Of a stretch of 3,083 nucleotides of DNA, positions 1 to 3,083 are shown in pieces (positions within the stretch are counted from its first letter, which is position 1; each line of letters begins with the position of its first letter). The stretch comes from a plasmid. The position numbers and the translations under genes are program-made. The notes under the pieces are model-generated. The model searched no databases. It worked only from the letters and a program-made list of their open reading frames with translations, and was not told the origin of the DNA. The DNA is taken from assembly GCF_054482595.1 (NCBI RefSeq), contig NZ_JBTHVH010000002.1, one strand, 5' to 3'.

Positions 1-426
1 CTCTTCGCTCTCCGTCTGATTTCGTTTGCAATTCTGTTATTTACTCTAATGGTGATAACCTTAGTCCTCTGCCGTACTTCTGAACCACTACGCTTATTTT
101 TAGCCATCGCAATGACTCTCCATTTTGCACGTTCTGGGTGTCGGGGCCTGCCCTGACAGGAGGTATTCTCATGCAAGCGAATGTATTCGCGGTATGACGA
201 ATACACATCCTGTCCCGTTTTTCGCTACAACTTTTCGACAAAAATAAAATACCGCGTCGTAACCTGGTATTTCTGATACAAAAAAACGATGCTTCATTCA
301 ATATTATTTACACAGATTTTAAAAGTTATTTCTTGTTATTTAATAAATAACGCAAAATTAATTGATGCTTTTGTTCTTTGTCGTTTGTTGATTATTGAGT
401 AAATAAAGATTGTGTTTTCCTGATTA

Positions 427-432
427 TATAAT
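427..432 (+). promoter_or_regulatory. Candidate -10 hexamer (TATAAT) of a ColE1-type RNA II primer promoter
   Basis: Perfect TATAAT at 427-432 in an AT-rich tract. No good -35 was found (TAAAGA at 17-bp spacing matches 3 of 6). The implied start near 439 puts GATCAAGA (481-488) about 43 nt into the transcript, as in ColE1/pBR322 RNA II. Confidence 0.35.
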
Positions 433-438
433 CCATTG

Positions 439-1010
439 CCTGTTAGTGATACGGAGTGCATCAGAGAACAGGAAGCAGGAGATCAAGATAGTAGCATGTG
501 CATAAAATACAAACCCGTGAGTTATTGATATCGCGTTTATATATTAAAAATATAACTTAACATTGCTCTTAATATTTATTTTGCCCTCGCAATGGGTGCA
601 TTAATCCCCGTGCAGCGCTCCGCCAGCTGCTGACGGCCTCGACATGCAACCGTCAATGCGATAAAAGATCGGGGTGCGTTTCCGGCAACAACTAACCATA
701 GGGATGGTTTGCGTGCCGACAAACGCCGGAAACGCGCCTCAAATCCACCAAGCCGCCACGGTTCCGGCAGCGCCTTGAGCGCAACCGGAAACCGACTGGG
801 GAGAACCCCAGACCCCCACCGCTGCAACATCATCGGTCTGCGACCGCCTACCAACCGAGCGACTGCCTGTACCGTGCAAACGGGCTTTGCAGGGGCTGGC
901 GCGGTTCCTGGCGACCTGAAAGCCCCTGGTTAGGGGTATCGGCGCGCCTGGCCTCCTGAAACCCTCTGTAAGCGTTTTTCGCGCCTTCCATGCCCTGGGG
1001 GGCATTTAAA
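439..1010 (+). ncRNA. ColE1-family pre-primer RNA II (ends approximate)
   Basis: ORF-free GC-rich stretch of about 570 nt between the -10 at 427-432 and the G6 run (997-1002) plus A-rich transition (TTTAAAACCC, about 1005-1014). This is the pBR322 geometry (RNA II about 555 nt; G6 then GGAAAAACGCC at the RNA/DNA switch). The six-frame ORFs here are Arg/Pro-rich with no ribosome-binding site. Confidence 0.5.
441..549 (-). ncRNA. Predicted antisense RNA I (copy-number control); position inferred from the ColE1 paradigm only
   Basis: In ColE1 replicons RNA I is antisense to the first ~110 nt of RNA II. I could not identify its promoter or its three stem-loops with confidence, so the coordinates are placed by analogy, not by sequence match. 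Confidence 0.2.
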
Positions 1011-1015
1011 ACCCG
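997..1015 (+). other. ColE1-type origin core: G6 run and A-rich RNA-to-DNA transition
   Basis: CCCTGGGGGGCATTTAAAACCC resembles pBR322 TCAGGGGGGCGGAGCCTATGGAAAAACGCC, the G-run and A-run that flank the RNase H processing site. Comparison is from memory of pBR322. Confidence 0.45.
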
Positions 1016-1059
1016 TTTCGTGCGTCTGAGAGCTTCTGAGCGCGTTTGAAGGGCTATCT

Positions 1060-1215
1060 GGCGACTCATCCCTGAAAGAAAAACAACGGGATCACCGACA
1101 ACATGCGAGAGATGACACCGCTCGCCGCAGCCCTAGCGACCGAACGTAGTGAGCGAGTGGGCGAGGAAGCGGAAGAGAACTGGAAGGTACATTTGGCTCT
1201 TACGCACTTCCGTAA
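1060..1215 (+). other. Ori-distal conserved segment with primosome assembly site (n'-pas / ssi-like)
   Basis: TCATCCCTGA...GATGACACCGCTCGCCGCAGCC...GTGAGCGAG...GAGGAAGCGGAAGAG...CTCTTACGCAC parallels pBR322/pUC TTATCCCCTGA...GATACCGCTCGCCGCAGCC...GTGAGCGAGGAAGCGGAAGAG...CTCCTTACGCAT. The GAAGCGG heptamer (1166-1172) is, as I remember it, the conserved PriA/n' recognition motif. Confidence 0.6.
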
Positions 1216-1278
1216 AGAACTAAGAAGAGGGTATCGCGGAAGCCGCGAAAAATGGGGATCCAATTTTCAGATCATGTG

Positions 1279-1369
1279 AGACGGTCTATCAGACGTCATC
1301 AGACCGTCTATCAAAAAACACGTTGATTTTGATAGACCGCGAATCTAAAGTTGAATCTTGTCTATCAAA
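1279..1369. repeat. Iteron/operator cluster, consensus AGAC(C/G)GTCTATCA, three direct copies and one inverted copy
   Basis: AGACGGTCTATCA at 1279-1291; AGACCGTCTATCA at 1301-1313; GTCTATCA at 1362-1369; inverted TGATAGACCG at 1331-1340; a degenerate copy AGACGTCATCA at 1291-1301. The first two copies are 22 bp apart and each contains the 9-bp palindrome AGAC-N-GTCT. The cluster sits immediately upstream of the winged-helix gene. Confidence 0.65.
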
Positions 1370-1382
1370 AAAAGGTTTAATT

Positions 1383-1913
1383 ATGATAAACGGTCGATAC
1401 AAAACTAACCCTTTTTTGGAAGGTATGATAGTGCCCGTCAAGGGTAAACAAGTCAGACTTTCCCGTCTAGGTCGTGATGAAAACATACTGGTTAATCAGA
1501 ACACGGGAGAGGTTCAAGGCACCCATGTAACAACATATAAACGGGTTGATGGTGAGCAGTTTGTAAAACTATTCACTGCAAATATCGCGTTAACCTTTGA
1601 TTTGTCAGCTCAAGGAATAAAAGCATTTAACGTTTTGATGTGGGCAATACAAAAGCAGTCAGTATCAAAAGACGAAGTTTATTTAGATACTCACACAAGA
1701 GAGGAGTTTCTTGCTATTTATAATGATAAAGATAAACCAATTAAATTAAGTCAGCCAACATTTGCTAGAGGATTAGCTGAACTTACAAAAGCTCAAATTA
1801 TAGCTAAAACCATACGTCAAGGAGTGTATTGGATAAATCCAAATTTTGCATTCAACGGTGATAGAATCGCGTTTACAACTCTTATTGAAAGGCAAGGTAA
1901 TAGTGAAAAATAA
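1383..1913 (+). CDS. Small winged-helix DNA-binding protein, putative iteron-binding replication/maintenance protein (RepL-like; assignment tentative)
   Basis: Same frame as track ORF 1323-1913. ATG 1383 has AAGG 7 nt upstream; alternative starts are ATG 1425 and GTG 1431 (GGAAGG 7 nt upstream). Stop TAA at 1911-1913. The C-terminus has a helix-turn-helix plus beta-wing signature (QPTFARGLAELTKAQIIAKTIRQGVYWINPNFAFNGDR) and the N-half has a GEV...FVK pattern I recall from RepL. Direct repeats upstream fit an autoregulated iteron-binding protein. Confidence 0.65.
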   Translation: MINGRYKTNPFLEGMIVPVKGKQVRLSRLGRDENILVNQNTGEVQGTHVTTYKRVDGEQFVKLFTANIALTFDLSAQGIKAFNVLMWAIQKQSVSKDEVYLDTHTREEFLAIYNDKDKPIKLSQPTFARGLAELTKAQIIAKTIRQGVYWINPNFAFNGDRIAFTTLIERQGNSEK

Positions 1914-1926
1914 CAGGGTAAAAACA

Positions 1927-2715
1927 ATGAGAAAAAAGAATATGTTTCCGCCAGGATCTTTGAGTATAAAATTAAATAAACCTTTAACTAAATATGAAAT
2001 AATTGAGATATTGTCAGAATACCTCTCGATGTTAGAAATAACTTTTAGGATAAAAGAATTCCGGCTTTTCTCTTATTTGGAATGCGTGCTTAATGGAGAA
2101 AAGCAGGCTATATACCATAAAGATAATAACACAATCGTGTCTGGATTTTTACTTGATTCAATGAGGAGTACAAACAACAGAAAAATCAATAAGATACTGT
2201 TAGGCGGTGATGATTTTGATGCCATGGAAAAAATCGATGACATGTTAAATATGAAAGCAGAATCCAATCCGTATGAATATTTTAAGAGTTTTTTATCACT
2301 AGTTCCTGCTAATATTGCATATGATCTCATCAGGAAAACTGAAGAGTTAATCGAACTTGAGAGAGTGGAAAGGATAAAAGAAAAAATCGAATTGCGTGAA
2401 AAAAAGCTAGAAAAAGATAAAAACATATTAAAGGTTATTTATAACAATAAGATTGCTGAGTATTCATGTACTTTTGATTATTTTAGATCTGTATATTTGT
2501 CTAGCTCTGGTTTTTTATCTTTAGAAAAACAAAAGGCTAAATATTTTCTTGCGGAAGGGTTGGGTTCACTATTGAAGGATTATGTTGGTAAAAGGTTGGT
2601 AAGATTATCAATTAAAGGCGATGATGGTAAAGTCTCCATAGTCGAAATATATGATGAAAATGGTAGATTTTTATTTAAGACAAAACCTCTAAATAAATCA
2701 CAGAGTAATCTTTAA
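1927..2715 (+). CDS. Hypothetical protein (262 aa), AT-rich, with a highly charged E/K-rich central helix; function unknown
   Basis: ATG 1927 lies 14 nt after the upstream stop, with AGGG 8-9 nt upstream. The track ORF start at 1846 would overlap the upstream gene out of frame and is unlikely. Stop TAA at 2713-2715. Residues ~134-169 (nt 2326-2433, DLIRKTEELIELERVERIKEKIELREKKLEKDKN) look like a charged helix or coiled coil. No Walker, HEPN, PD-(D/E)xK or polymerase motifs seen by eye. Confidence 0.75.
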   Translation: MRKKNMFPPGSLSIKLNKPLTKYEIIEILSEYLSMLEITFRIKEFRLFSYLECVLNGEKQAIYHKDNNTIVSGFLLDSMRSTNNRKINKILLGGDDFDAMEKIDDMLNMKAESNPYEYFKSFLSLVPANIAYDLIRKTEELIELERVERIKEKIELREKKLEKDKNILKVIYNNKIAEYSCTFDYFRSVYLSSSGFLSLEKQKAKYFLAEGLGSLLKDYVGKRLVRLSIKGDDGKVSIVEIYDENGRFLFKTKPLNKSQSNL

Positions 2716-2723
2716 TATGCTTC

Positions 2724-2756
2724 AGCCGATATACCAAATAAGACAGGATATCGGCT
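2724..2756. terminator. Intergenic hairpin between convergent genes (candidate bidirectional terminator)
   Basis: Perfect 9-bp inverted repeat AGCCGATAT (2724-2732) / ATATCGGCT (2748-2756) with a 15-nt loop, in the 46-bp gap between the stops at 2715 (+) and 2762 (-). The loop is long and there is no clean U-tract, so it is a weak intrinsic terminator. Confidence 0.3.
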
Positions 2757-2761
2757 AATAT

Positions 2762-3083
2762 TTATCTGTCGAATAAGTTAGAGCCTGGGTATTTATTTTT
2801 GTGCTCTCTTTTTATTATTTTTATTTCCTCTATTATTAAATCCATCTCTTTATAAATATTTGAAATTTTCTGTGTTATCTCTTTCATTTCAGTACAGAGT
2901 GAAATTATTTTATGCATCACCTCTAGGTACTCTTTATCATTCGGACTCATCCCTTTATCAAATAATTTTTTCTGCATCCGACCAAGTTGTATTAATTCAT
3001 CTAGATATCTAGAAGGCACGCGCTGTTTTATTTCATTATTTAAACTTACTGTCCTTATATACTCTGAGATTGTCAGCCCTTCG
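2762..3083 (-). CDS. Hypothetical protein, 5'-partial (frame open to the window edge), AT-rich; function unknown
   Basis: Track ORF 2762-3019 begins at a GTG with no ribosome-binding site. The same frame has no stop for 21 more codons to position 3083 (…EGLTISEYIRTVSLNNEIKQR-VPSRYLDEL…), so the true start probably lies beyond the window. Stop TAA (plus-strand TTA 2762-2764). Convergent with the 1927-2715 gene. Confidence 0.5.
   Translation of the reverse strand, partial: EGLTISEYIRTVSLNNEIKQRVPSRYLDELIQLGRMQKKLFDKGMSPNDKEYLEVMHKIISLCTEMKEITQKISNIYKEMDLIIEEIKIIKREHKNKYPGSNLFDR

Follow-up and report, generated by a model that had tools for sequence, protein, structure and literature searches.

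The small cryptic plasmid described here, a stretch of 3,083 nucleotides (nt) with the accession NZ_JBTHVH010000002.1 (assembly GCF_054482595.1) that we call the window over its full length, is built from modules of different base composition, among them a GC-rich cassette that lies upstream of the gene for a replication initiator of the RepL family. The modular architecture is firmly supported by our comparisons, and the contrast in composition that runs through the plasmid is real but ordinary, a mosaic produced by modules with different histories. We favor, with modest confidence, the interpretation that the GC-rich cassette is an exchangeable single-strand initiation (ssi) module, in other words a lagging-strand origin, that serves the RepL replicon. 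This proposal draws, among other things, on three properties of the cassette: it is uncoupled from the initiator gene beside which it sits, its orientation to that gene is fixed, and part of it is homologous to a primosome assembly site of ColE1.

The window corresponds over 100% of its length and at 99.9% identity to the complete circular plasmid pLH10-b-1-j of Escherichia coli (NZ_CP100540.1, 3083 bp), rotated by 1325 bases. That plasmid is already deposited and each of its modules is of a known kind; the window is best filed as a RepL-family small plasmid with a Col(MG828) cassette. The PLSDB record of pLH10-b-1-j gives its replicon type as Col(MG828) and its mobility as 'non-mobilizable', and RefSeq places three genes on it: repL (window 1383-1913), a gene for a hypothetical protein (window 1903-2715) and mobA, called nikA below, which wraps around the window ends. 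For the second of these, the open reading frame (ORF) that we call ORF2, the ATG at 1927 is used here as the start in place of the RefSeq start at 1903. Because the window is circular, its AT-rich stretch runs on past the window end and nikA is divided into 2762-3083 and 1-107.

The GC-rich cassette and the RepL replicon

Two of the modules are AT-rich. One is a RepL-family replicon that consists of five iterons (1283-1392), repL and then the orphan ORF2, and the other is a relaxase-less mobilisation unit made up of nikA, an origin of transfer (oriT) of the I-complex type (136-224) and an AT-rich spacer specific to the family. The third module is the GC-rich, non-coding and hairpin-rich cassette, which has its core at 747-1208 and an extension at 583-746 that is specific to the plasmid family of the window. 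The features of the cassette and of the replicon are as follows, with related plasmids named here and below by the L numbers of our comparison.

583..746, no strand assigned: left, family-specific part of the GC-rich segment, with a long hairpin at 676-735
747..1208, + strand: conserved GC-rich non-coding cassette of 462 bp that bears the marker for Col(MG828) typing; proposed as a module for single-strand initiation (lagging-strand origin)
759-794 and 796-811, + strand: two adjacent hairpins at the left edge of the cassette
820..994, + strand: sub-unit also found alone elsewhere, with three copies in NZ_CP045715.1 and one in L013
1117..1206, + strand: homologue of ColE1 ssiA, an n'-type primosome assembly site (pas); 76.7% identity over 90 nt
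1283..1392, + strand: iteron cluster of three direct and two inverted CGTCTATCA copies, the last of which overlaps the repL start
1383..1913, + strand: repL, replication initiator of 176 amino acids (aa); 36% GC, 27% GC at third codon positions (GC3); RefSeq annotation

The product of repL contains the RepL domain PF05732 (E-value, E, of 2.4e-7; 30.8 bits against the Pfam cut-off of 20.3) and has the features by which the RepL/pSN2 family is recognized, namely a PF05732 initiator of about 18-20 kDa with a helix-turn-helix (HTH) motif, and RefSeq likewise names the protein RepL. A search for its homologues returned 1357 related proteins, nearly all of them encoded on contigs of about 1-10 kb. 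At 1283-1392, CGTCTATCA occurs five times with at most one mismatch, compared with 0.45 occurrences expected, and none of 200 shuffles reached five. The sequence of the repeat shifts with the RepL subtype among relatives (GGTCTATCA, GTAGCTCA and TAAGCTCA), while its layout is constant, with two direct copies, one inverted, one direct and one across the start codon. On this pattern, we consider the iterons cognate to RepL, and the repeats are predicted to be RepL binding sites that would act as operator and as origin or double-strand origin (dso).

The cassette, in contrast to the iterons, does not follow the initiator. Its core is found at 80-100% identity in 951 plasmid records, hundreds of which are pKL1-like plasmids of only 1.46-1.55 kb, and its left and right ends recur among relatives at 745-756 and 1193-1208, respectively. 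We compared 15 plasmids, namely the window, pMG828-1 and 13 relatives. Every one of them has the cassette upstream of its rep gene and on the strand of that gene, and together they encode about seven types of Rep: three RepL subtypes, HTH_36 proteins of 158-170 aa of the pKL1 kind, a 146-aa and a 137-aa protein, and the 212-aa protein of pMG828-1. Identity of the cassette to that of the window ranges from 82 to 91% and is unrelated to the identity of the Reps, which ranges from 19 to 95%. Thus, L004 has the closest RepL (95.5%) yet the most divergent cassette, and the pKL1-like plasmids have an unrelated Rep yet the most similar cassette. The cassette is uncoupled from Rep, and we therefore conclude that recombination has exchanged it without regard to the initiator, in contrast to the iterons, which track RepL. 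Separate histories on the two sides of a junction had also been implied in a preliminary description of the window made from its letters alone, and the same two ranges of identity uphold this for the GC-rich block and the rep module.

This uncoupling has a practical consequence for plasmid typing. The Col(MG828) reference, pMG828-1 (L024, NC_008486.1), shares with the window only 747-1208 (its 873-1334, at 89.6%) and 34 nt of oriT. Since no other long stretch is shared, the Col(MG828) typing marker is in the cassette and not in a rep gene, and to judge from this alignment it must lie within 747-1208. The window carries the marker of the Col(MG828) group and lacks a pKL1-type RepA: compared with the pKL1-like Reps of L005, L016, L018 and L019, its own Rep reaches 19-23% identity, and those Reps match PF05732 at E-values of 0.003-0.01 that fall short of the cut-off. 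The plasmids typed here as Col(MG828) have initiators of at least four unrelated types (L001, L005, L014 and L019), and this heavily used 'replicon type' does not match one replicon or one incompatibility group. The marker, which has been reported in 530 of 880 sequence type 131 (ST131) genomes (PMC6949217), sits in a non-coding cassette common to plasmids with unrelated initiators.

The cassette is also essentially unannotated, with annotated features almost absent under the match in the 951 records. Five ORFs of 58-92 aa lie in or across the GC-rich block, and each is broken by stops or frameshifting indels in relatives; the 'hypothetical protein' calls made for some records are mutually inconsistent, and we rejected the idea that the block encodes protein. 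An Rfam scan of the window for structured RNAs returned nothing credible, the best matches being U7, BSnc120 and H19 at E 0.05-0.9.

Base composition and the resemblance to ColE1

In the preliminary description, the window was divided into an AT-rich spacer, a GC-rich ColE1 origin and AT-rich cargo. The three-part composition itself is borne out far beyond chance. Sliding GC content over 100 nt is 21-38% at 250-600, 51-67% at 600-1250 and 21-44% from 1300 to the end, and maximum-likelihood segmentation of the circle with two breakpoints isolates a GC-rich segment at 583-1247 with 59.7% GC, as against 33.3% outside it. The log-likelihood ratio of this segmentation is 74.8, compared with a mean of 6.3 and a maximum of 11.8 in 40 shuffles. 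Recursive segmentation yields four segments, 1-267 (45.7% GC), 268-582 (27.3%), 583-1308 (58.4%) and 1309-3083 (32.1%), and GC3 is 27-34% across all three genes. The hand counts on which the description was based were accurate (66.7% GC at 841-900, 33.3% at 1561-1620 and 21.7% at 2401-2460), and the right-hand GC boundary does adjoin a cluster of repeats, the five CGTCTATCA copies. It had further placed near 1260-1280 a likely junction between a ColE1 backbone and acquired DNA. A module boundary does exist close by, near 1208-1260, where the homology of relatives ends (at 1180, 1193, 1207-1208 or 1260), but the two sides of it are not ColE1 backbone and acquired DNA.

The resemblance to ColE1 is confined to one place. 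Window 1117-1206 matches ColE1 1308-1396 at 76.7% identity in the orientation of RNAII, including ACCGCTCGCCGCAG and GAGGAAGCGGAA, and this is the sole similarity between the two sequences. The location of RNAI at ColE1 645-749 on the - strand places ori near 1195, so that the match falls about 110-200 nt downstream of ori, which is the position of ssiA/pas. Having an ssiA/pas downstream of ori on the displaced strand is typical of ColE1-type replicons, and it is the only ColE1 feature in the window. In ColE1, ssiA is an n'-type primosome assembly signal that Pol I extension exposes and to which PriA is recruited (PMC3167613), and ssi sites are a standard element of ColE1-like replicons (PMC2831885). 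By homology, 1117-1206 may likewise support PriA-dependent priming.

The remaining parts of a ColE1 origin, in which an RNAII preprimer goes together with an antisense RNAI about 445-555 nt upstream of ori, are missing. Rfam detected no RNAI in the window at E<=1, whereas the positive control, RNAI of ColE1 itself, scored 73.8 bits in the same scan. The Rfam RNAI model was also silent, at E<=0.1 as well as E<=1, on L006 (NZ_CP045684.1, 3.4 kb), a plasmid with Rop and MobC that is presumably ColE1-like. Because the model missed L006, the missing match is weak evidence alone, and a direct sequence comparison was therefore added: local alignment of 583-1116 with the RNAII-ori region of ColE1 gave a score of 39, which is not above the null, the shuffle maximum being 41. 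No rop was found among the window ORFs or RefSeq genes. A resemblance of window 898-912 to the ori-proximal 'GGTTCCTGGCC' of pBR322 was rejected because it is not above chance. Nor was a convincing Xer (cer-like) site found, with the best candidates for a XerC arm, a 6-8 bp spacer and a XerD arm on either strand having at least seven mismatches to known arms. Finally, a ColE1-type replicon requires no plasmid-encoded initiator, whereas the window encodes RepL together with its cognate iterons.

The idea that a ColE1-type origin or backbone block has recently acquired AT-rich cargo, inserted at the iteron cluster, is in our judgment scarcely credible. It draws on the GC contrast, which is real, on the 90-nt match to ColE1, on the 'Col' group typing and on the many relatives whose homology breaks near 1208-1260. 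Yet the block lacks RNAI, RNAII and rop, and upstream of pas it resembles ColE1 no more than shuffled sequence does, while the supposed cargo holds the only initiator gene of the plasmid, with its cognate iterons, and a mobilisation gene, nikA, beside oriT; ORF2 alone is plausibly accessory. Recent acquisition is contradicted by the relatives as well, since in 13 of 13 relatives measured a cassette of 57-62% GC stands beside rep genes of 30-46% GC and the contrast is therefore family-wide. In five diverged relatives (L004, L007, L008, L010 and L017) the homology runs unbroken from the block through the iterons into repL, and no direct repeats longer than 6 nt flank ORF2. The preliminary description had named uniformly AT-rich relatives carrying the same genes as the outcome that would count against it. 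Half of this is what we see, since the AT-rich genes do belong to the ancestral backbone, but low GC does not extend over the whole of the related backbones. The earlier reading is thus partly supported, in that it located a real module junction, but it assigned the wrong identities to the modules and the wrong direction to the 'acquisition'.

The pas-like unit also occurs apart from the rest of the cassette. When the GC-rich block was used in a distant search, at least 5000 plasmid records gave a match, with ColE1-like and IncX4 plasmids as well as larger ones among them, and in most of the matches listed only the 60-95 nt of the pas-like element were aligned. The unit adjoins unrelated rep genes in NZ_CP045715.1 and in pCROD2, where it lies upstream of the IncX4 rep gene and is co-oriented with it. 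Inspection by eye reveals paired substitutions in the pas-like part, with GCCC..GGGC replaced by GTCGA..TCGAC in L002 and L004 and by GCCGA..TCGGC in L018.

A proposed lagging-strand origin and its competitors

We read the cassette as a lagging-strand origin because it is a strand-specific, hairpin-rich element, because it contains a homologue of ssiA, and because it keeps a fixed orientation upstream of diverse initiators. According to this proposal, RepL would act at the iterons and replication would run toward repL with displacement of the + strand, either by the rolling-circle mode assigned to the RepL/pSN2 family or by strand displacement. Lying just upstream of the iterons, the cassette would be exposed last on the displaced + strand, where it would fold and recruit the PriA primosome of the host so that synthesis of the complementary strand could start. 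The pas-like unit would then have the same polarity as in ColE1, in which the displaced strand of RNAII sense is acted on. Transfer from oriT is likewise predicted to involve the + strand, and the cassette could therefore prime complementary-strand synthesis in a recipient as well. An element that needs host factors but no particular Rep could pass freely between plasmids whose initiators differ. The pSN2 rolling-circle family, whose initiator is RepL (PF05732), has a dso and a separate ssoA, the latter needed for lagging-strand synthesis (PMC5703833), and the conversion of single-stranded to double-stranded DNA at an ssi or single-strand origin (sso) uses host enzymes only (PMC5714925), which would explain how the cassette could serve any Rep. 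GC skew was considered as a signal of the replication mode and discarded as uninformative, as it tracks gene orientation.

The hairpins and sub-units of the cassette and its surroundings bear on this reading. As single-stranded DNA, 755-815 (61 nt, both left-edge hairpins) folds with -21 kcal/mol (z-score, z, of -6.05), and 676-743 (68 nt, which holds the 676-735 hairpin of the extension) folds with -17.5 kcal/mol (z -3.68), none of 200 shuffles being as stable. Homologues of the 676-735 hairpin, 60-70 nt in length, were noticed in pPCP1 of Yersinia pestis (L020, 2418-2478) and in an E. coli rolling-circle plasmid of the Rep_1 type (L022, 790-857). The first of the two left-edge hairpins (759-794) is present as its reverse complement in L015 (2656-2693), and the second (796-811) has in L008 an inverted loop together with a compensatory change of a T-A to a C-G pair. 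Flipped hairpins of this kind suggest inversion of palindromes and selection on the stem rather than on its sequence. The hairpin at 990-1005 is retained with a different stem in L023 (NZ_CP045715.1), a 34-kb plasmid with a type IV secretion system (T4SS). This plasmid carries three copies of the 820-994 unit on one strand at 79-80% identity (7681-7855, 26192-26366 and 27047-27222), two of which bracket ccdAB, and its pas-like unit (5665-5739) comes just after a rep gene; a further copy of the 820-994 unit, at 93% identity, lies in L013, a 5.2-kb ddp1 plasmid. Within 975-994, the run TTTTTCGCGCC.. with C180 A181 T182 G183 C184 C185 of the aligned segment is invariant in nine sequences except at two positions. 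The sub-units of the cassette behave as independent, strand-specific elements. In L004, L007 and L010, an insertion of 46-58 nt after window 1056 (alignment columns ~319-376) separates the part corresponding to 820-1056 from the pas-like part, which is consistent with a cassette made of two or more separable units.

The strongest competitor of a lagging-strand role is that the cassette is the vegetative origin (oriV) proper, a theta origin that contains the start of the leading strand as well as sites for host factors, and that the iterons are mainly an autoregulatory operator or enhancer. We consider this unlikely, though not negligible. The cassette is always upstream of rep on the same strand, it carries the marker used for replicon typing, and it accounts for about one third of the DNA in the 1.5-kb plasmids; moreover, the polarity of the pas fits a leading strand that starts to its left and runs rightward, with the pas about 110-200 nt downstream of the start as in ColE1. 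However, an origin dedicated to one initiator would be expected to change along with its Rep, just as the iterons change, and the cassette stays at 82-91% identity across Reps that are 19-95% identical. Parts of it are also found beside unrelated IncX4 and other rep genes and in multiple copies far from any rep. For pKL1, oriV is described as directly upstream of repA (PMC3832669), a position that corresponds to ~300-480 in the pKL1-like L005, with oriT between it and the cassette.

A role of the cassette in conjugative establishment strikes us as improbable, and more so than an origin function. The cassette would in that case resemble the Frpo or ssi kind of element found in leading regions and would prime DNA synthesis, or promote transcription, on the incoming single strand in the recipient. 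It lies on the strand predicted to be transferred (nick between 212 and 213) and would enter early in the case of the window plasmid, the cassette-bearing pKL1-like plasmids also have an R64-like oriT, and the 820-994 unit is repeated on a single strand of a T4SS plasmid. Against this, the cassette-bearing L017 and L010 have no oriT match to the window, the cassette would enter last in L005, and its constant linkage is to rep and not to oriT; the identity of the transferred strand is itself predicted from a nick-site consensus.

It is also conceivable, but very improbable in our estimation, that the GC-rich block is a functionless and recombination-prone remnant of other enterobacterial plasmids, and that the mosaic records differing mutational histories of coding and non-coding DNA. 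The block is itself a mosaic whose sub-units are found separately elsewhere and whose edges are recombination breakpoints, and the insertion in L004, L007 and L010 is tolerated. A remnant would hardly be kept in 951 records that include plasmids of 1.46-1.55 kb, which have no room for ballast, and its long invariant runs, the hairpins preserved across Rep types and the strict conservation of orientation all argue for a function.

Several considerations weigh against a lagging-strand origin nonetheless. For enterobacterial RepL and pKL1-type plasmids, rolling-circle replication is assumed by analogy. The oriV of pKL1 is described as situated upstream of repA, with a box for integration host factor (IHF) and Rep-binding sites (PMC3832669); this reads like the description of a theta origin and cautions against assuming a rolling circle. 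The 91 nt of the pas-like element have an ordinary predicted stability on either strand (z -0.16 and -0.11), and for the cassette as a whole the gain in stability over shuffled sequence is modest (z -1.8 and -2.65). Statistics on covariation are defeated by the closeness of the relatives, with a covariation term from RNAalifold of -0.07 and changes on both sides in only 4 of 110 pairs, and the case for preserved stems leans on a few flipped hairpins and paired changes visible in the alignment; the pas stem was seen by eye and differs from the predicted consensus, and some stems are lost in the distant L023 copies, TGCAAA/TTTGCA being an example. Homology suggests a function for the pas-like part and not for 747-1116 or 583-746. 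Lastly, the strand logic depends on an inferred direction of replication and an inferred nick site.

With these points in mind, we still prefer the lagging-strand origin, and we put forward a broader version of it more tentatively. The 462-bp cassette may be a lagging-strand origin that is portable and independent of Rep, in effect a 'Gram-negative sso' organized around a PriA-type pas, and that has been swapped by recombination among many unrelated small enterobacterial replicons and some IncX and T4SS plasmids. If so, the RepL and pKL1-type plasmids of E. coli would replicate through long single-stranded intermediates, and the Col(MG828) type would score the cassette rather than a replicon and lump together at least seven initiator types. 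A PriA-dependent single-strand origin would also offer a handle on the replication of RepL-type plasmids in Gram-negative hosts. The direct significance of the present findings is small: they document the assembly of a very small plasmid from exchangeable modules and correct the misreading in which GC-rich DNA was taken for a ColE1 origin and AT-rich DNA for cargo.

Mobilisation unit, ORF2 and comparison with known systems

The second AT-rich module consists of the following features.

2762..3083, - strand: 3' two thirds of nikA/mobA, encoding a relaxosome accessory protein of 142 aa; mobA is at record 1437-1865 of NZ_CP100540.1
1..107, - strand: 5' third of nikA/mobA, with the start codon at 107-105
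136..224, + strand: oriT of the I-complex (R64-like) type, with the inverted repeats GGTGTCGGGGC..GCCCTGAC at 137-157 and 177-189/198-206
268..582, no strand assigned: AT-rich spacer, 27.3% GC, conserved only in nikA-type small plasmids

The wrapped nikA product is a NikA-like ribbon-helix-helix protein (Pfam PF21983 at E 3.8e-16; NCBIfam MobA NF041264 at 91.4 bits against a cut-off of 80), and no relaxase was found among the window ORFs or RefSeq genes. The oriT is about 76% identical to a stretch immediately upstream of the mobA-relaxase operon in the IncK2/Z plasmid pL2-87 and in many plasmids of 85-127 kb, and its layout recurs at 1-90 of L005. From the RP4/R64 consensus, the nick is predicted to fall between 212 and 213, between CATCCTG and the T that follows it. 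The window therefore presents what characterizes relaxase-less NikA/oriT plasmids, a ribbon-helix-helix accessory protein beside an oriT with inverted repeats and a nick motif. This design has been described for the pCERC7/NTP16 group of small plasmids, and in that related ColE1-like group mobilisation by R64 was demonstrated for NTP16 only (PMC9282650). By virtue of nikA and oriT, the window is a candidate for mobilisation by an I-complex helper. The 'non-mobilizable' label given by PLSDB/MOB-suite stands despite the NikA-like gene and the I-complex-type oriT, and relaxase-less oriT plasmids of this kind are probably under-called.

The pKL1-like L005 (p7_2.5, 1.55 kb) likewise has an R64-like oriT within 1-250, and beside it a sequence ..agccagtatacactccgctatcgctacgtgactgggtca.. 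that resembles the bom/nic region of ColE1; this would give two types of oriT within 250 nt. A second observation concerns the host range of the relatives: a 2310-bp hit with 89% identity over half of the window, NZ_CP031857.1, was deposited as Actinobacillus pleuropneumoniae and is either a real case of a host from another family or a contaminant.

With 300-746 as the query, 126 records gave a match, which spans at least 80% of the query length in 25 cases, and nearly all are nikA-type plasmids. Two stretches of the spacer, ~290-350 and ~520-580, hardly differ between the window and its relatives L002, L003 and L004, and there is no conserved ORF in 268-582. It contains a perfect DnaA box, TTATGCACA, at 497-505 on the - strand, a single match that is not above chance and that has one mismatch in L003 and L004; a scan of the spacer for IHF sites gave no exact site and a near-IHF site at 518-530. 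An origin of the type with DnaA boxes and a DNA unwinding element (DUE) was accordingly rejected for the spacer, the lone DnaA box being unconserved and an exact IHF site absent.

The plasmid stretch between repL and nikA has two further features.

1927..2715, + strand: ORF2, orphan protein of 262 aa, 30% GC
2724..2756, no strand assigned: inverted repeat AGCCGATAT..ATATCGGCT in the gap that separates ORF2 from nikA, two convergent genes; read directly from the sequence

Homologues of the ORF2 product form five protein clusters (57-98% identity) among 5.8 billion, all encoded on E. coli contigs of 2-4 kb, and the protein has no family match in Pfam, NCBIfam, PHROG or PADLOC. Its AlphaFold2 model has a predicted local distance difference test (pLDDT) score of 37, too poor for a fold search. 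The relatives L002 and L003, of 2.3-2.5 kb, lack ORF2, which is plausibly the only accessory gene of the plasmid. ORF2 lies directly behind repL in two backbones, the nikA type and a ddp1 type (L008, in which ddp1 replaces nikA), which hints at a role linked to the replicon. The inverted repeat that follows it is possibly a bidirectional terminator. The terminator scan did not pick it up, and the combined promoter and terminator scan was uninformative in general, as it gave fewer matches than shuffles.

The window combines elements of several known systems. In very small size and in the possession of a PF05732/HTH initiator of about 18-20 kDa it resembles the staphylococcal plasmids of the pSN2 (RepL) family, and it may share with them a structured, non-coding lagging-strand element, proposed in the case of the window, that is separate from the Rep-binding site (PMC5703833). 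The element of the pSN2 family is an RNA-polymerase-dependent ssoA that works in staphylococci, whereas the one proposed for the window resembles a PriA-type pas and belongs to Enterobacteriaceae, for which rolling-circle replication is assumed by analogy; in addition, the window plasmid has a mobilisation module and no member of the pSN2 family is known to have one. Another counterpart is the pKL1/pMG828-1 group of cryptic E. coli plasmids of 1.5-1.9 kb (PlasmidFinder type Col(MG828)), whose 462-bp cassette is 89-92% identical and is placed and oriented to rep as in the window, and which also have an R64-like oriT. These differ from the window in their winged-helix/HTH_36 initiator of 146-212 aa, whose similarity to RepL is below threshold, and in lacking nikA, the AT-rich spacer and ORF2.

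The single-strand initiation and promoter elements ssi and Frpo occupy the leading regions of conjugative plasmids. The cassette is like them, in organization only, in being strand-specific, hairpin-forming, non-coding and repeatable on one strand, and in lying on the strand predicted to be transferred. The ssiA of ColE1/pMB1 is similarly non-coding and agrees with window 1117-1206 in its polarity to the displaced strand, but there it lies downstream of an RNA-primed origin, whereas in the window the homologous segment lies upstream of a replicon that encodes its own Rep and is unaccompanied by ori, RNAII, RNAI or rop. The mobilisation unit, for its part, finds its counterpart in the pCERC7, NTP16 and pU302S group, in which a relaxase gene is also absent and an R64-like oriT that contains inverted repeats adjoins the gene for a NikA-like ribbon-helix-helix protein. 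Plasmids of that group are ColE1-like, with RNA-primed replication, and have an identical NikA, whereas the window joins its own variant of nikA and oriT (~76% identical to the I-complex oriT) to a RepL replicon.

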